A model generated the notes under the pieces. The model made no database searches. It was not told where the DNA came from and saw only the letters and a list, made by a program, of their open reading frames with translations. DNA of 64,000 bases, from assembly GCA_965205015.1 (NCBI GenBank), contig OZ242029.1, positions 4,832,001 to 4,896,000 on the forward strand. Reading direction: 5' to 3'. The position numbers and the translations under genes were made by a program. Origin of the DNA: Candidatus Poribacteria bacterium. GTDB taxonomy: Bacteria; Poribacteria; WGA-4E; WGA-3G. Position 1 is the first letter of the stretch. Every line of letters starts with the position of its first letter. Below, in pieces: positions 1,598 through 55,786 of the stretch.

Positions 1598-2503
1598 ATG
1601 CATAGCGGGCGCGTGAGATGGAAAGATAGATGTGTCTATCGGATAGTGTCTATGTTCGGGTGGGGGTGTCGTCGTCTTCCGAAGGGGTGGGCACTGCAAC
1701 TCGGAAGCGGTATAGGAATGTTGTGCTATCATTTCATCAAAAAACGCAGGGAGATTGCGCTCAAAAACCTACAGATTGCGTTCGGCAACCAGTTCACAAA
1801 CTCACAACGGATAGAGATTTGCAAGGCGAGTTTCATCAATGTTGGCAAAACCTGTATTGAGTTCCTCCGGTTCCCCAAACTCAACGCTGAAAACATCTGG
1901 CACGACGTTACAGTAGAAGGCGCAGAAAATCTCCACACAGCCTTGGCAGGTGGCAAAGGTGCGATTGTGTTCCTACCCCATTTCGGGAATTGGGAACTCC
2001 TTTCACTCGTCTACGGTGCGCTGATTCCCGATCGTGCGAAAGCCATCGCTTTCCCGCTGAAAAACGCGCGACTCAACACCTACATTTGGCGACATCGCGA
2101 GCAGATGCGTCTAAAATTGATCCCTCGGAAGCGTGCGATCCGAGAAACACTGCGCGCCCTGAAAAACAACGATGCAGTCGGTTTTTTCGCAGATCAGAAC
2201 GCCGGTCGAGAAGGGGTATTCGTCAATTTTTTGGGAAAACCCGCCTCAGCCGTCCGGGGTCCCGTTACATTAGCCCTCAAGACCGGGGCAGCCCTCCTCT
2301 TCTCAATCAGCATCCGCCAACCCGACGATCGACATCGCGTCTACATCTTACCCCCAATTCACTCCACCCCGTCCGACGACCCTGAGAGAGACGTTGAAAC
2401 TTACACAACACAGATGCTGAAACAGTTAGAAGCATATATCCATAAATACCCCGAACAGTGGCTTTGGCTCCATAACCGCTGGAAAACGCAACCGCCCCCA
2501 TAA
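1598..2503 (+). CDS. Lipid A lauroyl/late acyltransferase (LpxL/HtrB family)
   Basis: HFGNWE, FADQ and PEQWLWLHNRWK motifs. Confidence 0.9.
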   Translation: MHSGRVRWKDRCVYRIVSMFGWGCRRLPKGWALQLGSGIGMLCYHFIKKRREIALKNLQIAFGNQFTNSQRIEICKASFINVGKTCIEFLRFPKLNAENIWHDVTVEGAENLHTALAGGKGAIVFLPHFGNWELLSLVYGALIPDRAKAIAFPLKNARLNTYIWRHREQMRLKLIPRKRAIRETLRALKNNDAVGFFADQNAGREGVFVNFLGKPASAVRGPVTLALKTGAALLFSISIRQPDDRHRVYILPPIHSTPSDDPERDVETYTTQMLKQLEAYIHKYPEQWLWLHNRWKTQPPP

Positions 2504-2604
2504 AAATTGTGTTGCATCCATACTGAATTCGTGGTAAAATAGAGAAGATTCCCAAAAAGAGTGAAAACGTTGCGCCACCTTTTGAACCGTAGAGGGAAAA
2601 TCTC

Positions 2605-4152
2605 ATGAAAAGATACACCTTGTCCTTCATCGTCTTAGTGTTTGCTATCGGTATCCCGTTTCTGCTTATTCATCCGAATGAAAAAGATGCCATCAGCGGA
2701 GACGAACGCGTCACCGGTGTGATGTTAACCGACGCTTTGTCAACCGCTATCCGTATCACGAAAAAAAATTACTACAAACCGATCGAAGACACTCATGACC
2801 TCTTCCGCGGCTCCATCAAAGGGGCTCTCGCCTCCCTCGATGACCCCTACACCTATTATATCAAACCGCGCGACCACCAACGGGCTGTCGAAAATCTTTA
2901 CAATGCCGAATTTGGAGGCCTTGGTATTCATATCTATCCTGATCATCGCGGATTTATTAAGATCTCTAAACCGATTCCAAACACTCCCGCTGCACTTGCC
3001 AATCTCCAAGCAGGAGATTACATCACCAAAGTCAACGGCAAACGGATTCACCTCAGCGAAAAAACCGGCATGACGCGCGACGATGTCATCGATCTGCTCA
3101 GAGGAAAAGCGGGTACCGATGTGACAATCACAGTACAACGCAAATTCCTTGAACCTTTCGAGGTAACCCTGACCCGCGCCATTGTTCCTATCAGGAGCGT
3201 AAAGTCAACGATGCTTGACAGCGATATCGGATACATTCAGATATCAGGATTTATCGGAAACAAGGAAGGCACAGAAGTAGAGTTTAAAAACGCCCTTGCG
3301 GCACACAAAGCCGCCGGTATGAAAGCCCTCATCTTAGATTTGCGGGACAACCAAGGTGGACTCCTGAATGCCGCATATCACATCGCCGATGCTTTTATTG
3401 AAGAAGGACTCATCGTGTCGACAAGAAGCGAAACAAACAGCCAATTCAATGAAGAATATCCGGCAACATCCAACCTCTTGTGTCCACCCGATATTCCCCT
3501 CGTCGTCCTTGTCAACGAATACAGCGCGAGTGCCTCCGAAATCGTAGCAGGTGCGATTAAGGATACGCGCCGTGGTATCCTCGTTGGAAAGAAAACCTAT
3601 GGTAAAGGGGTCGTCCAAAAACGCTACGAACTACTCCCTGACGGCACTTCAATGTCGCTGACGATCTCCACGTATTATACGCCTAATGGCACCTCAATTA
3701 ACGAGGTAGGGATCACGCCACAAGTCTCTATCAACCTCGAAGAACCCAATGAGGTAGAAGAGATAATGCTCAGACAAGCGGATTCAACCGATTCTGTCGA
3801 AAATTTCGTCTCAAAATGGATTGATGACGCCCATCAAACCCCCGGTGAAATGCCAAAAGATTTCTCGCTGCTCGAAACTGAGCTGCCAAAATTACAGCAA
3901 ACGCTCGAAGAAGAAAACATCACTATCAGTTTACGGTGGCTCACACAGCGTGCAGAGCGACTCTTTAATCTATATGTCGGTATCGATCAGGTAGTGAATT
4001 TAGCGTACGACCGACAATTGCGGGAGGCGATTCGCATCATTAATGCCGATGAAGTTGGAAAGTATCTCATCCCTTCACCCGAAGAAACAGAACCGCCTTC
4101 GACGACCCAAGCGAACGTCCCATTGGAAGATGAGGTTATCACGGAAGAATAG
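2605..4152 (+). CDS. S41 family C-terminal processing protease (PDZ plus catalytic domain)
   Basis: LDLRDNQGGLL, SASASEIVAGA and TYGKGVVQ motifs; N-terminal anchor. Confidence 0.92.
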   Translation: MKRYTLSFIVLVFAIGIPFLLIHPNEKDAISGDERVTGVMLTDALSTAIRITKKNYYKPIEDTHDLFRGSIKGALASLDDPYTYYIKPRDHQRAVENLYNAEFGGLGIHIYPDHRGFIKISKPIPNTPAALANLQAGDYITKVNGKRIHLSEKTGMTRDDVIDLLRGKAGTDVTITVQRKFLEPFEVTLTRAIVPIRSVKSTMLDSDIGYIQISGFIGNKEGTEVEFKNALAAHKAAGMKALILDLRDNQGGLLNAAYHIADAFIEEGLIVSTRSETNSQFNEEYPATSNLLCPPDIPLVVLVNEYSASASEIVAGAIKDTRRGILVGKKTYGKGVVQKRYELLPDGTSMSLTISTYYTPNGTSINEVGITPQVSINLEEPNEVEEIMLRQADSTDSVENFVSKWIDDAHQTPGEMPKDFSLLETELPKLQQTLEEENITISLRWLTQRAERLFNLYVGIDQVVNLAYDRQLREAIRIINADEVGKYLIPSPEETEPPSTTQANVPLEDEVITEE

Positions 4153-20633: not shown

Positions 20634-22694
20634 TCACTGGGGTTTGCCGAGGGCTCCAGCGATCTGAACTAAGTCTTGAATGTTGACGACCCCATCGCCA
20701 TTGACATCCGCGGTGTTTTGTGCTGCCTTGCCGAGGTGTGCTGCGACGAACACAAGGTCTTGGATGTTGACGACCCCATCGCCGTTGACATCCGCCGTGC
20801 GTCGCTGAGGTTTAGGTGGCGTCAGTTCCCACAGGAGCACCGTGCCATCCCCACTGCCACTGGCGAGTATATTGCCATCAGGACTCAACGATATGCTCGC
20901 AACACTCCCCTTATGCCCTGTGAGGGTGCGTATGTGATTTCCTGTCTCTACATCCCATAGACGGATAGTGCCGTCTTGACCGCCACTGACGAGGGTCGTG
21001 CCATCAGGACTAAACGATACACTCTCGACAGCAGCTATATGCCCTGTGAGAGTGCGTATGTGATTTCCTGTCTCTATATCCCATAAACGGGCAGTGCCGT
21101 CCTCACCCCCACTGGCGAGCGTCGTGCCATCGGGACTAAATGACACACTCTCGACAGCACTCGTGTGCCCGCCAAGTGTTCGGAGCTGCTTCCCTGTTTC
21201 TACATCCCAGAGACGGGCGGTGCCGTCTCCACTCCCACTGGCGAGCGTCGTGCCATTGTGACTAAATGACACGTCCAGGACACTATCTGCATGCCCTATG
21301 AGGGTGCGTATGTGATTTCCTGTCTCGACATTCCATAAACGGATAGTGCCGTCTCCACTCCCACTGGCGAGGGTCGTGCCATCGGGACTAAATGATACGC
21401 TATAGACGTGCCATTCATGCCCTTCAAACGTCCGAAACTGCCTCCCTGTTGCTACATCCCAGAGATGGACAGTAGCATTCGGATCTCCACCTGCGAGGGT
21501 CGTGCCATCGGGACTAAACGATACGCTATAGATGTACCATTCATGCCCTCCAAACGTCTGGAACTGCTTCCCTGTTGCTACATCCCAGAGACGGATGGCA
21601 TCCCCCAACTCCACACTGGCGAGGGTGCTACCATCAGGACTCAACGACACGCCATTGATAGACAATGTATATCCTTTAAGCGTCTGGGATTGCTTTCCCG
21701 TCGCTACATCCCAGAGACGGATGGTGCCGTCATCACCACCGCTGGCGAGGGTGCCGCCATCAGGACTAAACAACACGCTATAAACCTCACTCGTATGTCC
21801 TTCAAGTATCTGGAGCTGCTTCCCCGTTGCCACATCCCATAGACGGACAGTATTATCCTGACTCCCGCTGGCGAGGGTGCTACCATCAGGACTCAACGAC
21901 ACGCTATAGACTTCACTCGTATGTCCTTCGAGTATCTGGAGTTGCTTCCCCGTCGCTATATCCCATAGACGGACGGTGCCATCTCCGCTCCCGCTGGCGA
22001 GTGTCGTGCTATCGGGACTAAACGACGCACTCGTAATCCAACCCGTATGTCCTTCAAACATTTGGATTTCCTGTCCTGTCTCTACATTCCATAGATGGAT
22101 GGCATCCTCAAAATCTGCGCTGACGACCCTGCTCCCATCAGGACTCAACGACACGCTCTGGATATACCATATATGCTCTTCAAGTATCTGGAGCTGCTCC
22201 CCCGTCGCTACATCCCATAGACGGATATCCCAACTTGCACTGGCGAGTGTTGTGCCATCGGAACTAAACGACATACTCCCAACCCAACTCGTATGTCCTT
22301 CAAGTGTTCGGAGCTGCTTCCCTGTTGCTACATCCCATAGGTGGACGGTGCCATCCGCGCCCCCGCTGGCGAGGATCGTGCCATCGGGACTAAATGCGAG
22401 ACTCACAACCCAACTCGTATGACCCGTGAACAGATTAAGTGCTTCGTTGGTCACGGTATCGTAGATCCAAATACCGATAGAACCCGCAACCGCCAAACGC
22501 GTTCCGTCCGGAGAATACGCAATCTCCGTTATAAATCCTTTACCGAGGCGAGCCTTGGCACCTTCAGGTAAACCCCATTGTGTGTGGTCTTGTGCGAACG
22601 TGATTGCTGAAAAAATGAAGGAAGCACAAAATAGTGGACAAGCAATCAAAAACAGCCTGTTTTTCATGAAAATTTTCCTTTTGTGTTGTCTCAT
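20634..22694 (-). CDS. Secreted WD40-repeat protein with C-terminal dockerin
   Basis: About 14 GH..SV.FSPDG.TLASG..D.T.RLWD repeats; two DVNGDGVVNIQDL loops. Confidence 0.9.
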   Translation of the reverse strand: MRQHKRKIFMKNRLFLIACPLFCASFIFSAITFAQDHTQWGLPEGAKARLGKGFITEIAYSPDGTRLAVAGSIGIWIYDTVTNEALNLFTGHTSWVVSLAFSPDGTILASGGADGTVHLWDVATGKQLRTLEGHTSWVGSMSFSSDGTTLASASWDIRLWDVATGEQLQILEEHIWYIQSVSLSPDGSRVVSADFEDAIHLWNVETGQEIQMFEGHTGWITSASFSPDSTTLASGSGDGTVRLWDIATGKQLQILEGHTSEVYSVSLSPDGSTLASGSQDNTVRLWDVATGKQLQILEGHTSEVYSVLFSPDGGTLASGGDDGTIRLWDVATGKQSQTLKGYTLSINGVSLSPDGSTLASVELGDAIRLWDVATGKQFQTFGGHEWYIYSVSFSPDGTTLAGGDPNATVHLWDVATGRQFRTFEGHEWHVYSVSFSPDGTTLASGSGDGTIRLWNVETGNHIRTLIGHADSVLDVSFSHNGTTLASGSGDGTARLWDVETGKQLRTLGGHTSAVESVSFSPDGTTLASGGEDGTARLWDIETGNHIRTLTGHIAAVESVSFSPDGTTLVSGGQDGTIRLWDVETGNHIRTLTGHKGSVASISLSPDGNILASGSGDGTVLLWELTPPKPQRRTADVNGDGVVNIQDLVFVAAHLGKAAQNTADVNGDGVVNIQDLVQIAGALGKPQ

Positions 22695-42541: not shown

Positions 42542-45220
42542 CTATTTCAGGTAGATTTCACCGTCCAAATCAGCAAGGGTGTGCTGAATATTGGTGATGC
42601 CCCTCGCGACAGCGGATGCTTGCGCCGGTAAATAAATCTCTTGCGCTTTTCCGCTGCGATTGTAGACTGCCCAACCATTGGTGAACTCCCGGATAAACAA
42701 ACCCTCAACCCCATGTCCCTTACCATCACGATAAAGGCGCGCCTTCTCGCCTACAGGACGACCGAGGTCCGCATCCCAGAATGGATACCAATAGTGTTGG
42801 TGGTTGTGATTATGCCGCTCACCTACTATATGTTCTCTCTCATGTTCGGGCGAGAGCGCGTATTCATGCTGATGGATGATGCCGGTAACTCCCATGACAT
42901 AACAAACGTAACCATCAGAATGTGTGAGGCTCAACGTCGTAATAACACGCATCATTTGCTGGTTACGGGGAGAATCTGGACGCTCAAACGGAATTCCTTG
43001 ACCTTCAAGCGCATTTATTCGCGGTCCACGAAAGTTCTGCTCCGACCATAACAACGTGCTTTCAATCTCTCGGAGACGCTCATGCGTGTAAGCCGTATCA
43101 CCTTCGTCCAGAATCGTTTCTATGAACGCCCCATTAAGGTAGGGTGCAGACAGTCGAGCTTTATGCCGTCCCGTATTGACAATCATCAGAAAATTGTCAC
43201 CAACAGCCTCACGAATCCGACGCATCATAGATATTCTCGCCGACCACTCGGCTTCAACACCTCGATAGTAAACCCCGTTGTCGTCCTCAAGCGTAACCTC
43301 GCCTTCCTGCCACCGTCCCAAGAAGACCCCGTCATGGAGACTACATTTCGCGACGGCGAGAACTTTCTGAACGAGGATGTCCTGGACGACAGGGTGTGTG
43401 AAATCTATCAGGAAGGTGGAACCCCCAGCGTAAGCTTGAACTCGATCGCCGTTCGCATCTCTTATCCAATGGGGCCACTCTTCAGGGTAGTCGCTTGGAT
43501 CAGCATCAATGTAGTCGAGACTCACAAGTCTTAGAAAGTTAGGATTTTTTGAAAGCAGATACTCCCTTTTCCCGTGTGCATCGTCTATTCTACCAAAGAG
43601 CCGGAGTCCTTCAGGTGTAGGCTGCCATTGCAGATGAAACCCCGGTCCACCCCAAAATAGATCGTGATAGACGAGTTCCTCATCTGCAGATAAGTTTGGT
43701 ACGTTGAGCATATCGTAATACCACGCTGAAAAGACCGAAGGATACTCCCTATCTTTGATACGAGATGCTACCGCGACCCGCGATATATCATCACAGATCC
43801 GGAAATTGCCATGCGTGTGTAACTCCTCTAAGTGCGTCAGCCCATCGAGGGGTGAAAAATCCCGAATATCATTATTTTCTACTAATAACTTTTTGAGATT
43901 GACTAACCCTGCAAGGGGTGAAATATCTTCGATGTGGTTCTGCCAAACATGTAAAGTCTCTAAACGCGTGAGTGCTGTGAGCGGACGTAGGTCCGAAATC
44001 TGGTTCTCTCCCAAATCCAGAAAAGCAAGTCCCGTTAGACTTGACAAAGGAGATATATCGTGAATCTTGTTCCCTATCAGAACAAGTGCTTGCAAATCAG
44101 TCGCGTGCTCTAAACCTATAAGATCGACGATCCCTTTATATCGCACATCAAGGGTTGTTAGGTGTTGAAGATCCCCCGGTGCCAATAGGTGGTGTGCTGG
44201 AAGCTGAAGCGTTTCTCGGACAGCCTGTCGGAGCGCGGAGTCCGGCATCCACTGTCCCTCAGAAAGTTTGAGTGAATCTTTTGAGGCATTGGGTGTTAAA
44301 TGCCTCTCGGGATCGTGTAAGCCGGTACTATTGTTTTTACTGATGGTGGTCGTTTGTCCAATTTGATTTCGCACGGAGGGTTTTGCGTCAGTCTCAAGGA
44401 CAATAGGGGCATCCATAATTTCAACGGTCGGGGCGGATTCAGCCTCGAAGCTGTAAGGTTTCTGAAAATGTGCGAGGTATTGGTTGCTGACGCTGAGCAT
44501 CAACAGGGTTGCTAAAACCACAGCACTCCCAAAAGCCGCCCACGGCAAGAACGGTTCCATTTTCGGAGAAGGGGTCGGTTGCATGTTAGCAACCTCTCGC
44601 ATGATGTTCTGTTTTATACTCGCCGATATCTGCACACCCCCGAGCACTTCTTGGATCAACAGTTCTTCATCTTCTTGTAACCGTTTCCGGGCACGATGCA
44701 GCCGAGTCCTTATCGTCTCCACTGACACCCCCAAGAATTTGCCAATGTCCTTCGTCGTCATTTCACCGAGATAATAGAGCGTCATCGCTGTCCGTTCACT
44801 CTCCGGCAATTTCTCCAAAAGTTTTTTGACGATTTCAAAACGATGTTCGGTTGCCTCTGTCTCGCGCCGTTCTAAGATGTAACGCGCATAAGCGGATTTC
44901 ACCACTTCTTCCACAGGTGTGTCCTCCAAGGATTGCAAGTGTCTTTCAGGTTTCTGTTTGCGCAGCCAATTCAGACACAGCCGATTCGCAATGACATACA
45001 GCCACCCGAGAAACTGGCTCGGATTTCTCAGCGTTGAAAGGTTTTGATAGGCACGGAGGAAAGTATCTTGCGTAATTTCCTCTGCATAGTGGAAATCACC
45101 GATCTTCCGCCACACGAGGGCGTGAACACTTTTTTGGTATTTTTCTACTAAAATGTCAAATGCCGTGTCGTCGCCTGACAAAACGGCATGAATCAACTGA
45201 ACATCGTCTTTTCTCTCCAC
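42542..45220 (-). CDS. ECF sigma factor fused to TM, LRRs and a putative GH-like domain
   Basis: GTG start with SD GAGGAGG; sigma regions 2 and 4; TM; LRRs; C-terminus homologous to 35713..37962. Confidence 0.88.
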   Translation of the reverse strand: MERKDDVQLIHAVLSGDDTAFDILVEKYQKSVHALVWRKIGDFHYAEEITQDTFLRAYQNLSTLRNPSQFLGWLYVIANRLCLNWLRKQKPERHLQSLEDTPVEEVVKSAYARYILERRETEATEHRFEIVKKLLEKLPESERTAMTLYYLGEMTTKDIGKFLGVSVETIRTRLHRARKRLQEDEELLIQEVLGGVQISASIKQNIMREVANMQPTPSPKMEPFLPWAAFGSAVVLATLLMLSVSNQYLAHFQKPYSFEAESAPTVEIMDAPIVLETDAKPSVRNQIGQTTTISKNNSTGLHDPERHLTPNASKDSLKLSEGQWMPDSALRQAVRETLQLPAHHLLAPGDLQHLTTLDVRYKGIVDLIGLEHATDLQALVLIGNKIHDISPLSSLTGLAFLDLGENQISDLRPLTALTRLETLHVWQNHIEDISPLAGLVNLKKLLVENNDIRDFSPLDGLTHLEELHTHGNFRICDDISRVAVASRIKDREYPSVFSAWYYDMLNVPNLSADEELVYHDLFWGGPGFHLQWQPTPEGLRLFGRIDDAHGKREYLLSKNPNFLRLVSLDYIDADPSDYPEEWPHWIRDANGDRVQAYAGGSTFLIDFTHPVVQDILVQKVLAVAKCSLHDGVFLGRWQEGEVTLEDDNGVYYRGVEAEWSARISMMRRIREAVGDNFLMIVNTGRHKARLSAPYLNGAFIETILDEGDTAYTHERLREIESTLLWSEQNFRGPRINALEGQGIPFERPDSPRNQQMMRVITTLSLTHSDGYVCYVMGVTGIIHQHEYALSPEHEREHIVGERHNHNHQHYWYPFWDADLGRPVGEKARLYRDGKGHGVEGLFIREFTNGWAVYNRSGKAQEIYLPAQASAVARGITNIQHTLADLDGEIYLK

Positions 45221-45479: not shown

Positions 45480-45638
45480 TTATGTTATCTTTTGTAACCA
45501 TGTATATGGATTCTCTACGCGGACGTGAAGGTGCGACTGATAGCGTTTGGCGAGTCTTAACATTCGGTCATCAGTTGTCAGAAGGATATCCGCATCACCC
45601 CTTTCGGCACACGCGATATGCAGAGCATCATAAGGCTT
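45480..45638 (-). pseudogene. C-terminal fragment of a PIN-domain toxin
   Basis: Manual translation KPYDALHIACAERGDADILLTTDDRMLR...VENPYTWLQKIT*; no start codon. Confidence 0.75.
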
Positions 45639-45978
45639 AAATCTCACGCAGGAACCGCATCTGTCCAGATGGACCCAGTTTTCCTGAAATTACGCTAAGT
45701 CCAAACCGATAAACCTCAATATCTGCCATTTCACTTATGTCTTTCGGAGATTTATTTTCGGGTCCCTCTTGTTTTTTTTCACGGAGATCTTGAATCCCTT
45801 GCATAATTGTCTCCATATCCAGACCGTCTAACCACTTGTGACGTTCAGCGGTATAATCGCCCGTGGGAGGCTCACACTGCCTAAGGAATCGAATTGTTCC
45901 AGCACGCCCCAATTTATCCAAAAGGATCTCAAGTCCCAACTCGTAAACTTCAGTGTCTGACATCTCTCGTATGTTCAT
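45637..45978 (-). CDS. Putative antitoxin of a PIN TA pair, with an internally repeated domain
   Basis: EMSDTEVYELGL..L.DKLGRAGTIRFLRQ..GDYTAERHKWL, repeated as EMADIEVYRFGL..ISGKLGPSGQMRFLRE. Confidence 0.6.
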   Translation of the reverse strand: MNIREMSDTEVYELGLEILLDKLGRAGTIRFLRQCEPPTGDYTAERHKWLDGLDMETIMQGIQDLREKKQEGPENKSPKDISEMADIEVYRFGLSVISGKLGPSGQMRFLREI

Positions 45979-46057
45979 TGGTACTTATCTCCTGTAACCA
46001 TTATGTAGATTTCCAACGCGTACCCGAAATCGGATAATTAAGCACTCCCTTTAAGAG

Positions 46058-46083
46058 AAGGCGAGGTCAGGAAACCTCGCCTT
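46058..46083. repeat. REP-like palindrome
   Basis: AAGGCGAGGT-caggaa-ACCTCGCCTT. Confidence 0.6.
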
Positions 46084-46187
46084 ACGGGTAATCAGGGATA
46101 AAATTTACCACTCCCCCGCTAAAGTTTCCCCTACCTTTAGGTAGGGGATGTAAGCGGAAACCAAGGGTGTGAAAGTCTCAATTAAAC

Positions 46188-46216
46188 TTGAAATTATACA
46201 GAAAATGTGGTATGAT
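46188..46216 (+). promoter_or_regulatory. sigma70 promoter inside the element
   Basis: TTGAAA-N17-TATGAT with extended -10 TG. Confidence 0.65.
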
Positions 46217-46222
46217 TCTTAT

Positions 46223-46636
46223 ATCAACGGGATAGGATAACAATCACCCGAAACCTATCGGGTGTCCTATCCAACCCAATTGTTAGGGTAGCGTTGACGT
46301 TGATACTTTCAACAAATACCACTTTTCGATTTATGAGTTATTAGCAAGGTTATGACCCTTGCGATCGTTTGTGATGAGTTGCTTTGGTAGAGATTGTGAA
46401 ATCACCTTTAATTTCACAACCGCCACACTGTATAGCAACGTCTTATCAAAGTATCGGTCTATTCTATGGGGTAATCGGAATAGTCCGTAGTTGTGCATTG
46501 GCTGGCACCGCGATTGTTGTATCGTGTCACCAGTAGAAATACTGGGAACGGCATTTAGACCGTAAGAGTGTACCCAGCGACTGAAATAGGATCGCCAAGC
46601 AAAGAAACCCCATGCTTTAGCTTGCGGGAGCAGTCA
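46223..46636 (+). ncRNA. Putative ~410-nt structured RNA (omegaRNA-like 3' end)
   Basis: Series of hairpins, e.g. GGATAGGA/TCCTATCC, TTGTGAAAT/ATTTCACAA, CCAGTA-GAAA-TACTGG; no ORF of 60 aa or more. Confidence 0.5.
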
Positions 46637-47257
46637 TTTGCGTTTAGAGGGTGCTTCCATCGCTGGATAGATTTCTATATCCGCTCGCGTGATGAGAACG
46701 CCGACGTAGAAGGTCAACCAGTCGCCGCAGAGCTCAATAGACATGTACTCGTCGTTATCACTGGCGTACTCGTGAAGTTCAACATCAAACTTATCTTCCC
46801 CTTCGGCATTGGCGAGGGTAAGGGTGGCAGGCACAACGTCTTGTCGGTTATATTCAACAGCGATGTCCTCACCCTGACTATCTGAGTTAGGAAAATAGAG
46901 GGTCATTGTGTCCGGCAACGGATCGCCGAGTTCACATTCGTCGTCAACAATCCATCGGGAAATCTCGTATTCGTCCTTCGTCCCAGCGACATGATCGACC
47001 CCGATAACGACCTCTTCCTCCGCGTCTTGGACGTGATACATATAGCGGCGGAGGCTGTTACCTTCATACTTCTTCCGTGTGACCAGTTTGAAGGCGTGCG
47101 AAGTATCTCCCGTCTCCTCATACGTAATGATATCGGAGAGTTCAATCATGCTATCAAGCGGAATGTCGACTAACTCATGTCGCTCCGGTTTCTTGGGTTC
47201 AGCGTCCTTTCGTCTACCAAACAGGGGTGTGCCATCTTTTCTACCAAACAGTGCCAT
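46634..47257 (-). CDS. Acidic hypothetical protein (DUF4178-like)
   Basis: 207 aa; C-terminal YMSIELCGDWLTFYVG...DIEIYP. Confidence 0.55.
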   Translation of the reverse strand: MALFGRKDGTPLFGRRKDAEPKKPERHELVDIPLDSMIELSDIITYEETGDTSHAFKLVTRKKYEGNSLRRYMYHVQDAEEEVVIGVDHVAGTKDEYEISRWIVDDECELGDPLPDTMTLYFPNSDSQGEDIAVEYNRQDVVPATLTLANAEGEDKFDVELHEYASDNDEYMSIELCGDWLTFYVGVLITRADIEIYPAMEAPSKRK

Positions 47258-47265
47258 GTTCCCCC

Positions 47266-48432
47266 CTAAAAATAACCCTTGTTATACATCACAACCACAA
47301 CCACGCCAACAACGAGGACGCTTCCGAAGATAAGCAGGAACCAAGTTGCCCCCGATGTCTCCTTCTCGATAACAACGGTTCGTGTAGCAGGCGGGGCGCG
47401 CGTTGCGGGGGTTGTTACCGTCGGTGTCGCCTCGGCAGCGGCAAGGAGTTCCGACTTCAATGCCTCTTCATCTGGCAGCTCATCAACTGTAACAGCCTCG
47501 GCACCCTCCCCATAAAACGCATCAGGGTTCTCCTCAACGTAACTCGCGACATAATCCTCATCTCGGTTTGTGCCGGGGTCTACGTAATTCGCGTTCGGTT
47601 CAACACCTTGGCTCTCGTAATAGTCTTTGTAGTACTCATACTCCGCCTGTTTTTCTGCACTCCAATGCGAGCGGTCATAATCGCGATGGTGATAGTGCCA
47701 CAGGTAACTATGGCGAATCGAATGGTTGTAATAATCATGGAAATAGATACCGAACATGAGGTTGTTAAACGCCATAGATGCCGCCAACGGGTACATTGAA
47801 TACCCCATCATTGGATAGTAACCCCCGAAGTTATTGACGTTAATCGTTTGGCGTGCGTCTCGGCGAGCGCGTGCCGTCTCGCGATTCGCTCTTCTGTTTT
47901 GGCGTTTTAGCGTCCGGTTTTCTGCCTTGAGTTGTCGAACCTGTTTCCGATTTTGCGCTTTCACCTGCCGTTGCTGACTGCGCGTTGCGCTCCGAGTCGC
48001 GGTCGTGCTTCGATTTGTTGCAGTCGTCGCTTTTGCACGGCTCGTTGCCGTCTGCCGCTGACGCGCTACGGTGCTGGCACGTGTACCGGTGCTTCTCGAC
48101 GCGCTACTTCTGCTATAACTGCTGCCTGTACTGCGGGTCGTTCGCGTCGAACTCCGTGGCGTGCTATAAGAACGACTCGTGCTACTCCGACTGCGCGTGC
48201 TACTATAGGAACGCCTGGGAGTGGTACTCCGTCGACTCGTGCTACGACTATAACTCCGGCTACGACTGAAACTCCGTCCTCCCCGAAAACCACCGCCGCG
48301 ACGGCTCTCTACAATATCGGGTGCAAAACTGAATAAAAAGACAACCAGAACCGCAAGGATTGAAAACTTCTGAAATTTACGTTTCACCCTGATCTTCCTC
48401 CTTAGATTTTTTTCGATGGAAAAACTTGACAA
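47266..48432 (-). CDS. Membrane-anchored protein with long Arg/Ser/Thr low-complexity region; start uncertain
   Basis: Signal-like segment, RRGGGFRGGRSFSRS..., Tyr/His-rich middle, C-terminal TM. Confidence 0.7.
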   Translation of the reverse strand: MSSFSIEKNLRRKIRVKRKFQKFSILAVLVVFLFSFAPDIVESRRGGGFRGGRSFSRSRSYSRSTSRRSTTPRRSYSSTRSRSSTSRSYSTPRSSTRTTRSTGSSYSRSSASRSTGTRASTVARQRQTATSRAKATTATNRSTTATRSATRSQQRQVKAQNRKQVRQLKAENRTLKRQNRRANRETARARRDARQTINVNNFGGYYPMMGYSMYPLAASMAFNNLMFGIYFHDYYNHSIRHSYLWHYHHRDYDRSHWSAEKQAEYEYYKDYYESQGVEPNANYVDPGTNRDEDYVASYVEENPDAFYGEGAEAVTVDELPDEEALKSELLAAAEATPTVTTPATRAPPATRTVVIEKETSGATWFLLIFGSVLVVGVVVVVMYNKGYF

Positions 48433-48454
48433 AAGATGCCGAATTTGTTAAAAT
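48426..48454 (+). promoter_or_regulatory. sigma70 promoter of the tRNA gene
   Basis: TTGACA-N17-TAAAAT. Confidence 0.7.
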
Positions 48455-48516: not shown

Positions 48517-48590
<74 letters not shown>

Positions 48591-50035: not shown

Positions 50036-50171
50036 GACCTACGCGACTCTCTGGTAGTACCTGTCACCGAACCAACAGAAACCTTGCCTCTATGTCCGTA
50101 TGCCCGACCGTACAGCACCCGGACAAAAACCTATATCTGCGGTAAGAAATAAAAAAACAAGGAGACTCTTT

Positions 50172-52679
50172 ATGAAATCGACATCTGTTTTCGTTGCTTT
50201 TTGGCTGGTGCTTATTTGTGCCCTAACAAGTTTCGCCCAAGATTACACCAAGTGGAATTTACCGGAGGGAGCGGTTGCCCGTCTCGGCAAAGGCAGTATA
50301 AATGAGATAGCGTATTCCCCGGATGGCGATCGGTTCGCGACAGCCGGTGGTGCTGGTATTTGGATATACGATGCGGATAGCGGTGAAGAATTAGCAATCC
50401 TCACAGGGGACTCGAAAGGGCTGGGCCTGAGCCTGAGCATTGCGTATAGTCCAGATGGGAAAACACTCGCAACGGGGAGTTCGGACGGCACCGTGCGTCT
50501 CTGGGACCCAAACACTGGCACTCTCAAAAACACACTCACTGAACGCATAGGCTATGTCTGGAGTGTCGCGTATAGTCCAGATGGGAAAACACTCGCAACG
50601 GGGAGTTCGGACAGCCCGGTGCGTCTCTGGGACCCAAACACTGGCACTCTCAAAAACACACTCACTGAACACACAAAAGGAGTCTCGAATGTAGCGTATA
50701 GTCCAGATGGGAAAACACTCGCAACGGGGAGTTCGGACGGCACCGTGCGTCTCTGGGACCCAAACACTGGCACTCTCAAAAACACACTCACTGAACACAA
50801 GTACTCTGCCCTGAGCGTAGCGTATAGTCCCGATGGCACTACCCTCGCAAGTGGGAGTACGGACAGCACCGTGCGTCTCTGGGATGCAAGGACAGGCACT
50901 CTCAAACATACACTCACTGGACGCACGGGCTGGATCTGGGTCCATAGTGTCGCGTATAGTCCAGATGGGAAAACACTCGCAACGGGGAGTTCGGACGGCA
51001 CCGTGCGTCTCTGGGACCCAAACACTGGCACTCTCAAAAACACACTCACTGGACGCATGGGCGCGTACTGTGATGACTTTAGTGTAGCGTATAGTCCCGA
51101 TGGCACCACCCTCGTAAGTGGGAGTACGGTCGACACTGTGCGTCTCTGGGACCCAAACACTGGCACTCTCAAAAACATACTCACCGGACATACGCCCTCT
51201 GTCCAGAGTGTCGCGTATAGTCCAGATGGGAAAACACTCGCAACGGGGAGTTCGGACAGCACCGTACGTCTCTGGAACACCACGACAGGCACCCTCCGAC
51301 AGACGCTCACTGGACACACTTGGGGGATCAAGAGCGTCGCGTATAGTCCAGATGGGAAAACACTCGCAACGGGGAGTTTGAACAGCACCGTGCTTCTATG
51401 GGATGCGACGACAGGCACCCTCAAAAACACACTCACTGGACACACGGACAGGGTCTTTAGTGTCGCGTATAGTCCAGATGGGAAAACACTCGCAACGGGG
51501 AGTTCGGACCACACTGTGCGTCTATGGGATGCGACGACAGGCACCCTCAAAAACACACTCACTGGACACACGGACGATGTCCGGAGTGTCGCGTATAGTC
51601 CAGATGGGAAAACACTCGCAACGGGGAGTTCGGACCACACTGTGCGTCTATGGGATGCGAGAACAGGTACGCTCAAACACGCACTCACTAGATACACGAC
51701 CGAAGTCTATAGCGTTGCGTATAGTCCGGATGGGAACGCACTCGTAACTGGGGGTTCGGACCGCACCGTGCGTCTATGGGATGTCACGACAGGAATCTCC
51801 AAATACGCCACTGGACACACGGACAATGTCCGGAGTGTAGCGTATAGTCCGGATGGGAACACACTCGCAACAGGGAGTTCGGACCATACCGTGCGTCTAT
51901 GGGATGTCACGACAGGTGCCCTCAAAAACACACTCACCGGACAGACGTACGTTTCAAGTGTAGCGTATAGTCCCGATGGAAACACCCTCGCAAGTGGGAG
52001 TTCGGACGGCACCGTGCTGCTGTGGCAACTCACACCCACTGAACCCACCGACGCACCCAAGCAACTTGCCGCCGACATCAACGCCGATGGACAGGTCAAT
52101 ATCCAAGACCTCGCGCTCGTCGCCACCGCATTCGGGCAGACGGGGGAAAATACGGCGGATGTCAACGCCGATGGGAAAGTTGATATCCAAGACCTCACGC
52201 TCGTCGCCGCCGCATTCGGAAACAGAAACGGTGCCCCCAAGGCATCGCACCCAGACTCCGCAAGCAGTGCCAATAGAGAACAGGTCCAGCACTGGCTCAC
52301 ACAGGCACGGCAATCTGCCCTCACCGATCCTGTTTCGCTCCGTGGCATTGCTGTGCTGGAGCAACTCCTCGCTGCCTTGACGCCTACAGAGACGGCACTC
52401 CTGCCGAACTATCCGAATCCGTTCAATCCGGAGACGTGGATCCCCTATCAACTCTCGAAACCTGCGGCGGTTACGGTGAGTATCTATACGGCGGATGGCA
52501 CGCGGGTCCGCGTTTTGGCGGTCGGGCATCAAGCGGCGGGGATGTATCAGCACCGCAGCCGGGCGGTGTATTGGGACGGCAGGAACACGCAAGGGGAGTC
52601 TGTGGCGAGTGGCGTCTATTTCTATACGTTGACCGCTGGCGATTTCACTGCGACTCGGAAGATGATCATACGAAAGTAG
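50172..52679 (+). CDS. Secreted WD40-repeat / dockerin / FlgD-T9SS-like-tail protein
   Basis: Signal peptide; about 14 near-identical ~126-nt WD40 units; DINADGQVNIQDL and a second loop; NYPNPFNPETW tail. Confidence 0.9.
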   Translation: MKSTSVFVAFWLVLICALTSFAQDYTKWNLPEGAVARLGKGSINEIAYSPDGDRFATAGGAGIWIYDADSGEELAILTGDSKGLGLSLSIAYSPDGKTLATGSSDGTVRLWDPNTGTLKNTLTERIGYVWSVAYSPDGKTLATGSSDSPVRLWDPNTGTLKNTLTEHTKGVSNVAYSPDGKTLATGSSDGTVRLWDPNTGTLKNTLTEHKYSALSVAYSPDGTTLASGSTDSTVRLWDARTGTLKHTLTGRTGWIWVHSVAYSPDGKTLATGSSDGTVRLWDPNTGTLKNTLTGRMGAYCDDFSVAYSPDGTTLVSGSTVDTVRLWDPNTGTLKNILTGHTPSVQSVAYSPDGKTLATGSSDSTVRLWNTTTGTLRQTLTGHTWGIKSVAYSPDGKTLATGSLNSTVLLWDATTGTLKNTLTGHTDRVFSVAYSPDGKTLATGSSDHTVRLWDATTGTLKNTLTGHTDDVRSVAYSPDGKTLATGSSDHTVRLWDARTGTLKHALTRYTTEVYSVAYSPDGNALVTGGSDRTVRLWDVTTGISKYATGHTDNVRSVAYSPDGNTLATGSSDHTVRLWDVTTGALKNTLTGQTYVSSVAYSPDGNTLASGSSDGTVLLWQLTPTEPTDAPKQLAADINADGQVNIQDLALVATAFGQTGENTADVNADGKVDIQDLTLVAAAFGNRNGAPKASHPDSASSANREQVQHWLTQARQSALTDPVSLRGIAVLEQLLAALTPTETALLPNYPNPFNPETWIPYQLSKPAAVTVSIYTADGTRVRVLAVGHQAAGMYQHRSRAVYWDGRNTQGESVASGVYFYTLTAGDFTATRKMIIRK

Positions 52680-52822: not shown

Positions 52823-55786
52823 ATGAAACCGACACCTGTTTTCGTTGCTTTTTGGCTGGTGCTTATCTGTGCCCTAACGAGTTTCGCCCAAGATTACACC
52901 ACGTCGAATTTACCGGAGGGAGCGATTGCCCGTCTCGGCAAAGGCGTTGTAAAGGAGATAGCGTATTCCCCGGATGGCGATCGGCTTGCGATAGTGAGTA
53001 GTGTAGGTATTTGGATATACGATGCGGGGAGCGGTGAAGAATTGGCACTCCTCACTGAACACAAGGAAGCGGTCAATAGTGTTGCGTATAGTCCCGATGG
53101 AAACACACTCGCAACGGGGGGTTCGGGCGATGTGCGTTTATGGGATGCGAAGACAGGCACGCTCCGACAGACGCTCACCGAACAAGGGGTCGAGGTCACA
53201 GATATTACGTATAGTCCCGATGGAAATACACTCGCAACGGGGGGTGTCTGGAACGAAGGGCATCTATGGGATGTGAAGACAGGCACACTCAAACATAAAC
53301 TCCCTGGAACCGTGGGCTGTATCGCCTCACATGTTGCGTATAGTCCCGATGGGAACACACTCGCAACGGGGCGTAGTGACGGCACCCTGCGTCTATGGGA
53401 TGCAGCGACAGGTACGCTCAAAAACACGCTCAAAAACACGCTCACTGAACACAAGGAGGCGGTCAATAGTGTTGCGTATAGTCCCGATGGGAATACACTC
53501 GCAACGGGGAATGAGGACGGCACCGTGCGTTTATGGGATGCAACCACAGGCACGCTTCGACAGACGCTCACTGGACGCATAGGCATAGTGAGTGGCTGGT
53601 ATCGTGGCATGGTCAATAGTGTTGCGTATAGTCCCGATGGGAACACACTCGCAACGGGGAGTGGGGACGGCACCGTGCGTTTATGGGATGCAACCACAGG
53701 CACGCTCAAAAACACGCTTACTGGACACACGGATTGGGTCAGTAGTGTTGCGTATAGTCTCGATGGAAACACACTCGCAACGGGGAGTACGAACGGCACC
53801 GTGCATTTATGGGATGCAACCACAGGCATACTCAAAAACACACTCACTGGACACACGAGTTATGTCTTTAGTGTTGCGTATAGTCTCGATGGAAACACAC
53901 TCGCAACGGGAGGTTCGCGCGATGTGCGTTTATGGGATGCAACCACAGGCACGCTCAAAAACACGCTCACTGGACACACGTATCAGGTCAGAAGTGTTGC
54001 GTATAGTCCCGATGGGAACACACTCGCAACGGGGAGTAGGGACGGCACCGTGCGTTTATGGGATGCAACCACAGGCACGCTCAAAAACACATTCACTGGA
54101 CACACGAGCGAGAGTGTTGCGTATAGTCCCGATGGGAACACACTCGCAACGGGGAGTGGGGACGGCACCGTGCTGCTGTGGGATGCAACCACAGGCACGC
54201 TCAAAAACACGCTCACTGGACACAAGGGGAATGCCCTTAGTGTTGCGTATAGTCCCGATGGGAATACACTCGTAAGTGGAGGTTTTGACAGCACTGTGCG
54301 TTTATGGGATGCAACCACAGGCATACTCAAAAACACACTTACTGGACACAAGGAGGGGGTCTATAGTGTTGCGTATAGTCCCGATGGGAACACACTCGCA
54401 ACGGGGAGTAGGGACGGCACCGTGCGTCTATGGGATGCAACCACAGGCACGCTCAAAAACACACTTACTGGAAACACGGATGGAGTCTTTAGTGTTGCGT
54501 ATAGTCCCGATGGGAACACACTCGCAAGTGGGGGGGACACCACCGTGCGTTTATGGAATGCAACCACAGGCACGCTCAAACACACGCTCACTGGAAACAC
54601 GAACGTAATCAAAAGTGTTGCGTATAGTCCCGATGGGAACACACTCGCAACGGCGGGTGCGAACGGCACCGTGCTGCTGTGGGATGTCACACCCTACAAC
54701 TCACAAACTTATTCGGTTGAAACAGATAGTCTCACAGAAGTACCTGAGGTGTCTGTCAACAGTGATGTTGCGCATGTGAGTCTCTCCGCTGCGTCGGTCT
54801 GGTCTGGCACTATAGGTGACCAACTGACGGTGAACGCTAACATCACAGAGGGTGTAGACGTGAGGGGGTATCAAATAGAACTCATTTTCGAGCGTGCAGC
54901 ACTGCGTTTTGTGTCAAGTGTGGATGGCGGGTATCTGCCGGCGGGTGCTTTCGTTGTGCCGCCCGTGGTGAATGGCAATCGGGTCACGTTTGGGGCGACA
55001 TCTCTACAAGCGAGTAGCGAAGGGGATGGGACGCTTGCGGCCTTCACGTTTGAAGCATTGACTGCCTCGCCTGCGCTGCCGACACTCTCCGATGTGAAAC
55101 TGGCCGACAGTGATGCCAACTTCTTAGCCGTGCGGATTGAGACCAAGACGGGAGAAGTCGGTCTTACCTCTCTTGCGGGAGACGTGAACGGTGATGGTGT
55201 GGTGAGTCTTGAGGATATGACTGTGGCTTCGGGGCGTCTGGGTCAGACAGGTGAGAACACAGCGGATATGAACAAGGATGGCGTAGTGGATGTGGCGGAT
55301 CTCCTGTTAGTTGCAGCAGCGATAGAAGCCGCGGCGGCTGCCCCGTCGCTGCATCCGGAGCGTATTGCTGAGATGTTCACTGCAACAGAGGTGCGTCAGT
55401 GGTTATCGCTTGCGCGGGCAGAAGGTCTCACAGGTGGGCGGTATCAGCGAGGGGTGCTGCTTCTGGAACACCTTCTTATGAGACTCACCCCGAAAGAGAC
55501 GTTGCTCTTAGCGAACTATCCGAATCCGTTCAATCCGGAGACGTGGATACCGTATCAGTTATCAGAGCCTGCGGATGTGTCTATTTTCATCTATGCTGCA
55601 GATGGACGTTTGGTTCGGATGCTGACGTTAGGGCATCAGTCTGCGGATATCTATGCGTCTCGGAGCCGTGCGGCGTATTGGGACGGCAGGAACACGCAAG
55701 GGGAGTCTGTGGCGAGTGGCGTCTATTTCTACACGTTGACTGCCGGCGATTTCACGGCAACCCGGAAGCTGTTGATACGAAAGTAA
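52823..55786 (+). CDS. Secreted WD40-repeat / cohesin / dockerin / FlgD-T9SS-like-tail protein
   Basis: About 14 WD40 units; VRGYQIELIFERAALRFV cohesin-like segment; dockerin loops; tail. Confidence 0.88.
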   Translation: MKPTPVFVAFWLVLICALTSFAQDYTTSNLPEGAIARLGKGVVKEIAYSPDGDRLAIVSSVGIWIYDAGSGEELALLTEHKEAVNSVAYSPDGNTLATGGSGDVRLWDAKTGTLRQTLTEQGVEVTDITYSPDGNTLATGGVWNEGHLWDVKTGTLKHKLPGTVGCIASHVAYSPDGNTLATGRSDGTLRLWDAATGTLKNTLKNTLTEHKEAVNSVAYSPDGNTLATGNEDGTVRLWDATTGTLRQTLTGRIGIVSGWYRGMVNSVAYSPDGNTLATGSGDGTVRLWDATTGTLKNTLTGHTDWVSSVAYSLDGNTLATGSTNGTVHLWDATTGILKNTLTGHTSYVFSVAYSLDGNTLATGGSRDVRLWDATTGTLKNTLTGHTYQVRSVAYSPDGNTLATGSRDGTVRLWDATTGTLKNTFTGHTSESVAYSPDGNTLATGSGDGTVLLWDATTGTLKNTLTGHKGNALSVAYSPDGNTLVSGGFDSTVRLWDATTGILKNTLTGHKEGVYSVAYSPDGNTLATGSRDGTVRLWDATTGTLKNTLTGNTDGVFSVAYSPDGNTLASGGDTTVRLWNATTGTLKHTLTGNTNVIKSVAYSPDGNTLATAGANGTVLLWDVTPYNSQTYSVETDSLTEVPEVSVNSDVAHVSLSAASVWSGTIGDQLTVNANITEGVDVRGYQIELIFERAALRFVSSVDGGYLPAGAFVVPPVVNGNRVTFGATSLQASSEGDGTLAAFTFEALTASPALPTLSDVKLADSDANFLAVRIETKTGEVGLTSLAGDVNGDGVVSLEDMTVASGRLGQTGENTADMNKDGVVDVADLLLVAAAIEAAAAAPSLHPERIAEMFTATEVRQWLSLARAEGLTGGRYQRGVLLLEHLLMRLTPKETLLLANYPNPFNPETWIPYQLSEPADVSIFIYAADGRLVRMLTLGHQSADIYASRSRAAYWDGRNTQGESVASGVYFYTLTAGDFTATRKLLIRK

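Follow-up and report, generated by a model that had tools for sequence, protein, structure and literature searches.

Between two minus-strand open reading frames (ORFs) in the genome of a Candidatus Poribacteria bacterium there is a gap of 655 nt. The question raised by this locus is what fills the gap, and whether it supplies a guide RNA. The DNA analyzed, called the window below, is a stretch of 64,000 nucleotides (assembly GCA_965205015.1, contig OZ242029.1, positions 4,832,001 to 4,896,000 of the forward strand), and all coordinates refer to it. The two ORFs, at 45637–45978 (113 residues) and 46634–47257 (207 residues), have no Pfam family. From the sequence alone, an initial annotation had placed here, at 46116–46660, an ORF-less IS605-type element. 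About 410 nt of its interior were proposed to form an unusually long RNA, either omegaRNA-like or of a new non-coding RNA (ncRNA) class, which could serve a TnpB-family protein in trans.

The gap is found to be occupied by an element of 529 bp, at 46109–46637 on the + (top) strand. It is very probably a non-autonomous, protein-less derivative of an IS200/IS605 element, of the kind known as palindrome-associated transposable elements (PATEs) or miniature inverted-repeat transposable elements (MITEs). The non-coding module next to its right end is probably the functional scaffold of a guide RNA for some nuclease of the OMEGA (obligate mobile element-guided activity) systems, as predicted from its position, folding and conservation.

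Boundaries and target site of the element

Contigs of four public sequencing runs, X6, X10 and X12 among them, were compared with the window over 45600–47300. Runs with small word shares (X8, X9, X11 and X13–X20) do not enter any statement on habitat or spread, and no weight is given to segments left uncovered by the compared runs. A DNA contig of 3099 nt (X6 record 15) tracks the window from 45601 to 46108 and resumes at 46638. It skips 529 nt, with no letters common to the two sides at the joint, and represents the empty site. Two diverged versions of the neighborhood, one from X10 and one from X6, are also without the element and read ...CTTAC|TTGCG and ...TTTAC|TGACG.

The same sequence occurs in other surroundings. 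In X6 record 17, a contig of 1210 nt, the match to the window runs from 46105 to 46638, and both flanks are unrelated to those of the window. The left 53 nt (46105–46157) are found in an X12/X10 contig with another flank and another interior. Right junctions at 46637/46638 are present in X6 record 17, X10 record 2 and X12 record 8. In every left junction, in the window as well as in two contexts with other flanks, the tetranucleotide TTAC (46105–46108, +) lies directly 5′ of the element, and it is retained in the empty site. Since TTAC precedes the element in all left junctions, the mobile unit is 46109–46637, inserted 3′ of TTAC without target duplication. Insertion of this kind is the signature of the "peel and paste" elements of the IS200/IS605 family. 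TTAC is also the putative target-adjacent motif (TAM).

The idea of an ORF-less IS200/IS605-type element is thus borne out by the empty site, the TTAC target and the copies with different flanks (X6 record 17, the X12/X10 contigs and X10 record 2). The span first given for it, 46116–46660, has to be replaced by the one that the empty site defines. A repeat search within the window finds this single copy and no second one, and there is no match in plasmid or phage collections. A 20-mer from the conserved right-hand part (the core, see below) hits two loci in genome contigs, both of which prove to be chance matches upon alignment. The same 20-mer and a 22-mer from the left hairpin have no match in viral contigs, nor does a 24-mer from the core in metagenome contigs.

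The insertion took place at the very end of the host gene, the minus-strand gene for 207 residues (46634–47257), whose stop codon is now provided by the element. On the minus strand, this gene ends with ...CGC AAG TAA in the empty site and with ...CGC AAA TGA in the occupied site, retaining both the lysine and a stop. TTAC, the target, is complementary to G-TAA, which comprises the final base of the lysine codon and the stop codon; in its place, the end of the element provides A-TGA (46634–46639). Because the target coincides with G-TAA and the last bases of the element give a new stop, the 207-residue protein is unchanged. The silent landing illustrates nicely how elements of this sort can persist within dense genomes. 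The 207-residue protein shows no similarity to a 206-residue ORF elsewhere in the window.

Ends shared with transposase and nuclease loci

The left end (46109–46157, +) consists of a 19-nt spacer ending in CTAAAG-TTT and the perfect hairpin CCCCTACCT-TT-AGGTAGGGG (46128–46147), which begins 19 nt inside the element. Folded as DNA, the hairpin has an energy of −12.3 kcal/mol (z −3.45). The left-end block alone is common to contigs with different interiors. Three extra T (46125–46127) lie between the AAAG motif and the hairpin in the window copy and in X6 record 17, and the abundant X12/X10 variant is without them.

The right end (46609–46637, +) aligns with the right ends of three of the hairpin loci described below, L017, L031 and L020. 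It comprises a degenerate hairpin, CCCCATGC-TTTA-GCTTGCGGG (46609–46628), and a terminal tail of 9 nt, AGCAGTCAT. Relative to the stems of the three loci, 6 of the 9 pairs are retained, two of them with both partners changed, and 3 are disrupted. Alone, the hairpin is unstable (DNA fold, z −0.01). Subterminal hairpins on one strand, in place of terminal inverted repeats, mark IS200/IS605 elements, the left one lying about 19 nt and the right one about 10 nt inside; here they are present at both ends, at the right end only in degenerate form. Of the two terminal hairpins described initially, the left one is strong, but the right one does not stand as a stable structure by itself.

The 20-nt left hairpin was sought in metagenome contigs and found at 47 loci, with 120 ORFs nearby. 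The 40 nearest ORFs, from 37 loci, were scanned with Pfam, and 8 loci were scanned with Rfam at the gathering threshold; 6 loci were covered by both scans, so that 39 of the 47 were examined. The 40 ORFs include seven for TnpB, four for Y1 transposase (Y1_Tnp) and one for an IsrB-like RRXRR protein of 358 residues. Altogether, a gene for TnpB, TnpA or the IsrB-like protein, or a HEARO RNA, adjoins the same hairpin in 12 of the 39 loci. Sharing of these ends with tnpA and tnpB genes, which the initial annotation proposed to look for, is hence observed for the exact left hairpin. The 47 loci show no similarity to the element beyond the hairpin. They are distant relatives with no close full-length parent among them, and for this reason served only as family controls, not as relatives of the cargo.

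A complete tnpA+tnpB element, L017, permits a closer comparison. At its left end, TTAC is followed by 17 nt that close with GTAAAG and then by an imperfect hairpin, and a promoter-like site lies about 42 nt past this hairpin; the corresponding distance in the window is about 40 nt. The two elements share TTAC, a spacer of 17–19 nt ending in TAAAG, CCCC...TTTA...GGGG hairpins at both ends, a tail of 8–9 nt that follows the right hairpin and finishes with TCA(A/T), and a promoter-like site some 40 nt beyond the left hairpin. Unlike L017, the window element has neither tnpA nor tnpB, shows no significant similarity to it outside the hairpin, and carries a degenerate right hairpin. The ends also presumably resemble those of IS608 of Helicobacter pylori. 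A covariation of the 4 nt before the right hairpin with the last 4 nt of the element was considered across the loci, and was dropped because the cleavage points of the loci are not known.

Coding capacity

The element contains no long ORF with a start codon, in line with what the initial annotation had stated for the interior. Its longest stop-free frame has 100 codons, on the minus strand (46334–46633), with no start at its head. This frame has no Pfam match and no homologue, and it is interrupted by 1-nt insertions and deletions in other copies; coding on the minus strand is rejected on these grounds.

Remnants of a nuclease gene were sought in several ways. Seven stop-free pieces and one read-through frame gave nothing in Pfam at E ≤ 10. 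The + strand frame at 46287–46565, which has two stops, was read through with X and matched nothing in Pfam or among longer proteins, and a second + strand frame gave no protein match either. No protein was found whose C-terminus matches + frames 0 and 1 of the core. With all filters switched off, a hidden Markov model built from six TnpB proteins scored below zero in every one of the six frames, and searches of protein databases with the frames of the element yielded no homologue. The interior thus does not read as a decayed tnpB in the Pfam, protein-database or TnpB model tests.

Two resemblances noticed by eye were put to these tests and failed. One was a decayed tnpB in + frame 0 (46287–46565), based on the motifs YHFSIYE and HRD...EIL. 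The other, on the opposite strand, was the motif VVFVES, which recalls the N-terminus of IsrB (compare L008, the locus of the IsrB-like gene); it is incompatible with the + frame idea, and we regard both as pattern-seeking. A cognate transposase or nuclease gene was not found elsewhere in the 64 kb.

A conserved module next to the right end

Comparison with X6 record 17 divides the element into three zones. The left end and promoter zone (46105–46225, +) is 86% identical in the two copies; its 121 nt differ at 17 positions and by 1 gap. The following 139 nt (46226–46364, +) form a variable middle module with a strong hairpin at 46230–46272 and a small one at 46344–46362, and X6 record 17 has 131 unrelated letters instead. 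The non-coding core at 46365–46637, the candidate omegaRNA scaffold, which is tentatively assigned to the + strand, is 97% identical between the two copies; over the 274 nt of 46365–46638, 7 positions differ and two 1-nt insertions occur. In the same run, the host DNA that surrounds the empty site is 90–92% identical to the window. Part of the core is common to another element type: a sub-core at 46445–46637 (+) occurs with 10 differences in 193 nt in X10 record 2, a contig of 1707 nt, where it is preceded by 1391 other letters and followed by another flank; of the contigs compared, this is the one that may contain a parent element.

The six helices named in the initial annotation are all present in the sequence. 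They are GGATAGGA (46230–46237) with TCCTATCC (46265–46272), enclosing CACCCGA (46246–46252) and TCGGGTG (46258–46264); the long-range helix of GATACTTT (46302–46309) with AAAGTATC (46448–46455); GCAAGG (46344–46349) with CCTTGC (46357–46362); TTGTGAAAT (46394–46402) with ATTTCACAA (46411–46419); CTATTC (46459–46464) with GAATAG (46478–46483); and CCAGTA (46530–46535) with TACTGG (46540–46545). Against dinucleotide shuffles, the whole element folds with z −6.0 on the + strand and −7.75 on the minus strand, and 46200–46660 with z −4.6 and −5.8, respectively. The middle module reaches z −4.1 (+) and −4.7 (−), and its hairpin −4.92.

The RNA of unusual length does not hold up. Only the last 193–274 nt are common to copies, and 46226–46364 can be exchanged for the unrelated letters. 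The comparison of copies therefore argues against membership of the first ~139 nt of the supposed 410-nt RNA in the conserved structure. The long-range helix bridges this replaceable module and so is unlikely to matter. The right-end-proximal part is structured and conserved, as expected of an omegaRNA that needs its effector in trans.

Differences in the core are listed at 46405, 46433, 46440, 46473, 46553/55/56/59 and 46587, and four of these fall in one hairpin loop of 8 nt. In the minimum free energy structure, 8 of the 9 listed positions are unpaired on the minus strand and 6 of the 9 on the + strand, against unpaired fractions of 0.41 and 0.39. Taken as 6 events, the loop enrichment has p ~0.005 (−) and ~0.03 (+), these values being for a partial list that holds the best-supported differences only. 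The 97% core identity and the location of changes in loops point to constraint on a folded module of 274 nt next to the right end, so far as sequence comparison can tell.

A promoter-like site of the sigma-70 type, TTGAAA-17 nt-(TG)-TATGAT, lies at 46188–46216 (+) and is directed toward the right end, with the transcript expected to start at ~46223. Four sites with at least 10 of 12 consensus matches and the TG, this one included, were found in the 128 kb that the two strands of the window make up. The near-consensus promoter proposed here earlier is accordingly real and rare. Another of the four, at 48426–48454 (+), has 11 of 12 consensus matches and TG, and is located just upstream of a tRNA gene (48517–48590). 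Its position suggests that sigma-70-like promoters are in use in this organism, and so lends credence to the promoter of the element.

Whether the element could be an inert relic has to be considered at this point. It would then be a deletion derivative in decay that yields no functional RNA; its folding would reflect the cis hairpins for TnpA plus chance, and the identity of the core recent spread or recombination. The single copy in the window, the unstable right hairpin with 3 of its 9 pairs broken, the three T added before the left hairpin relative to the abundant variant, the + strand fold of the core, which is no better than shuffles (z −0.96), and the lack of a partner gene in the window all fit such a relic. 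However, one pair of copies has kept the core 97% and the left end 86% identical while the middle was replaced, the changes in the partial list avoid stems, and a promoter of a quality seen 4 times in 128 kb is retained. TnpA, according to work on IS608, needs only some tens of nt at each end, which leaves the 274 conserved nt unexplained. We consider it unlikely that the element is inert.

Strand and type of the predicted RNA

Two layouts are known for guide RNAs at the ends of such elements. The omegaRNAs of TnpB are encoded at the right end by the top strand and take their guide from the 3′ flank (PMC10097598); those of IscB and IsrB (HEARO) come from the bottom strand and carry the guide at the 5′ side (PMC10055086). 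For the core, we lean slightly toward the former and predict a TnpB-type omegaRNA scaffold on the + strand. The + strand promoter is placed where the tnpA+tnpB element L017 has its promoter-like site, and TTAC would be a T-rich motif 5′ of the target; both favor the TnpB type. From the empty site and the known layout of TnpB omegaRNAs, the putative guide is TTGCGTTTAGAGGGTG (46638–46653, +). The guide start proposed initially has to be moved, since the true flank begins at 46638 (TTGCG), one base later. The putative guide lies antisense to the final codons of the 207-residue gene; its sequence is unique in the window, with no other target there.

No match to HEARO (RF02033) was obtained at E ≤ 10 over 45900–46800 or 46340–46665, and the core matches none of 4227 Rfam families. 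Beside the same hairpin, HEARO scores 127.2 bits in L026, 122.4 bits in L028 and 37.4 bits in L008, where it lies upstream of the IsrB-like gene. A match to the HEARO motif, one possible outcome for an omegaRNA-like element in the initial annotation, is thus absent from the locus at a threshold of E ≤ 10, while three controls score 37–127 bits. On the other hand, Rfam detects nothing in 11 hairpin loci scanned, 7 of which are TnpB loci. Therefore the silence of Rfam here is what a TnpB-type RNA would give. The group I intron families, to which an IStron would belong, gave no Rfam match at E ≤ 10.

A number of observations weigh against a TnpB-type RNA on the + strand. A weak terminator-like hairpin (46344–46362, +) stands between the promoter and the core. 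Folded alone, the core does better on the minus strand (z −2.81 vs −0.96 on the + strand), and the listed core variants fit the minus-strand fold slightly better, with the reservation that the list is partial. Four G-U pairs are added to the helix at 46572–46600 if the minus strand is read, and none on the + strand. The helix joining the two ends of the core (46374–46385 with 46626–46637) gains three only on the + strand, so that the G-U pairs, favoring each strand once, do not decide between them. For the 3′ tail, a TnpB-style pseudoknot partner was sought; several complements of 5–8 nt exist, with no consistent place among six right ends. RNAalifold, applied to four right ends, recovered only the end hairpin. 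Full-length elements usually have an omegaRNA that overlaps the 3′ end of tnpB, yet no trace of such an end overlaps the core, and neither homology nor linkage of the core to a tnpB 3′ end was found. The 20-mer and 24-mer scans of genome, viral and metagenome contigs gave no relative with tnpB beside this core. On the side of the TnpB type, an RNA-library contig (X12 record 8) contains 46493–46637 with 6 differences and 123 nt of flank and stops there, while a DNA contig of the same sample extends upstream. It is a weak hint only, as these are assembled contigs and DNA may be present in an RNA library.

The same data bear on the opposite assignment, in which the core specifies an omegaRNA of the IscB/IsrB type on the minus strand. 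Its guide would be complementary to 46638–46657, the scaffold would run from 46637 to about 46365, transcription would come from the 207-residue gene, and the IsrB or IscB protein would be encoded elsewhere. The core of 274 nt is near the ~264-nt scaffold of DtIsrB (PMC9581776), the minus strand folds better against shuffles and fits the listed variants slightly better, and the upstream minus-strand gene is co-directional, so that read-through could supply the guide. The same type of hairpin borders the bottom-strand HEARO RNAs of L026 and L028 and the IsrB-like gene of L008. Nevertheless, no HEARO match appears at E ≤ 10 on either strand while the controls give 127, 122 and 37 bits, and outside the hairpin these control RNAs are not similar in sequence to the element. 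Relative to a minus-strand RNA, the strong internal promoter would be antisense, and the layout of left end and promoter matches that of the tnpA+tnpB element L017. Moreover, TTAC implies a GTAA TAM, unlike the NTGA and NTG motifs of IsrB (PMC9581776). We regard the IscB/IsrB type as quite improbable.

A structured ncRNA unrelated to OMEGA guides, whether regulatory, antisense or self-serving, that merely rides in an IS200/IS605 shell would agree with the lack of a match in 4227 Rfam families, the lack of a tnpB or isrB remnant and the antisense orientation of an outward transcript to the 3′ end of the 207-residue gene, but it is very improbable, because the conserved part borders directly on the right end, the place of guide-RNA scaffolds, Rfam also misses the right ends of 7 TnpB loci among 11 scanned, and no positive sign of another RNA class, including a group I intron (IStron) match at E ≤ 10, was seen.

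Relation to known elements

Protein-less elements of this family have precedents. PATEs frequently carry omegaRNAs for use in trans, as reported for Geobacillus stearothermophilus (Meers et al., PMC10055086). Stand-alone omegaRNAs that were mobilized and act in trans are attributed to Altae-Tran et al. in PMC10691335 and appear also in PMC9581776. A new ncRNA class, as suggested initially, is therefore not opened by the present element, since protein-less IS200/IS605 elements and stand-alone omegaRNAs working in trans are already described in these three sources. A limited look at the literature found no mention of Poribacteria, and we make no claim that the elements of this phylum are unpublished.

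Like PATEs and stand-alone omegaRNAs, the element has no protein gene, has IS200/IS605 ends and is inserted by a short motif without duplication. It shares with them a conserved non-coding module near the right end and the need for TnpA and a nuclease in trans. It differs from PATEs in that its predicted RNA matches no described family, in the swappable middle of 139 nt, and in its location exactly on the stop codon of a host gene.

Another system close to the predicted RNA is the omegaRNA of ISDra2 TnpB, whose mature scaffold comprises 116 nt of a precursor scaffold of 231 nt (PMC10097598). Position at the right end (predicted here), a guide in the flank, a T-rich motif 5′ of the target and a similar size range are common to both. 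However, the core has no sequence similarity to the ISDra2 RNA, the conserved pseudoknot of TnpB omegaRNAs was not identified in it, and there is no overlap with a tnpB 3′ end.

HEARO RNA (RF02033) is likewise a structured RNA of 210–280 nt near the right end, end hairpin included, and gene-less copies of it exist (L026, L028). The window element is distinct from it in giving no match at E ≤ 10 and in having a linker of 12 nt before the next helix, whereas in HEARO a second hairpin follows immediately.

The HEARO loci themselves deserve a brief description. L026 (380–790) and L028 (326–553) are ORF-less stretches in unrelated metagenome contigs, in which the HEARO match overlaps the same end hairpin and the bottom-strand layout with a 5′ guide is also seen. 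L026, where another hairpin of similar sequence lies at a distance of about 360 nt, looks like a gene-less HEARO mini-element. In L008, the IsrB-like gene (2493–3850; 358 residues, RRXRR, no HNH match) is downstream of the 37-bit HEARO match and ends inside a second hairpin, CCCCTGCCTTTAGGCAGGGG. The sequence of its upstream RNA is common to L016 and L040.

The clean empty site documents a protein-less IS200/IS605 element in a lineage of uncultured sponge or coral symbionts. The exact boundaries, the target or TAM (TTAC) and the candidate guide would allow the RNA to be paired with a compact nuclease from the tnpB or isrB genes of the genome.

Proposed mechanism

A model consistent with these features is as follows. 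A TnpA (Y1 transposase) encoded elsewhere would have pasted an IS608-like derivative, as single-stranded DNA, just 3′ of a TTAC whose complement overlaps the TAA stop codon of the 207-residue gene. The derivative retains the left end, the inward promoter and the right-end-proximal non-coding module of 274 nt. In full-length relatives this promoter sits between the left hairpin and the first gene. Here it may drive a + strand transcript that traverses the core and leaves the element at its right end. Within that transcript, the final ~150–270 nt of the element would form a TnpB-type omegaRNA scaffold, with the first ~16 nt of the flank (TTGCGTTTAGAGGGTG) as the guide. A TnpB from a full-length relative elsewhere in the genome could use this RNA in trans, cutting the TTAC-flanked empty site after excision, and the element would be copied back by homologous repair.

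A bolder extension of the model, which we put forward as a long shot, is that the core belongs to a lineage of guide-RNA scaffolds outside Rfam that is kept by selection as a stand-alone, promoter-equipped trans guide in genomes of sponge symbionts. Its 5′ domain would be exchangeable, and the TTAC/TGA chemistry would allow harmless landing on stop codons. If this were true, the element family could carry a dispersed repertoire of guides aimed at the 3′ ends of genes, possibly with a role beyond transposon homing.

Other features of the window

To the left of the element, on the minus strand, a PIN domain at 45480–45647 is reduced to its C-terminal end (Pfam profile positions 90–119 of 120). 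X6 record 15 has 414 additional letters between 45643 and 45646. Given these letters, the PIN (VapC-like) gene of the window looks truncated through deletion.

Long genes made of repeats of 126 nt (42 residues) are found at 20634–22694 (−), 50100–52679 (+) and 52823–55786 (+), and are related across both strands. The repeats at 20634–22694, in the only one of the three genes that was scanned with Pfam, are WD40.

The minus strand at 23535–45220 holds three tandem paralogues of about 7.3 kb for giant leucine-rich-repeat (LRR) proteins and, adjoining them at 42542–45220, a gene for a fusion of 892 residues in which an extracytoplasmic function (ECF) sigma factor is combined with LRR repeats and GHL15.

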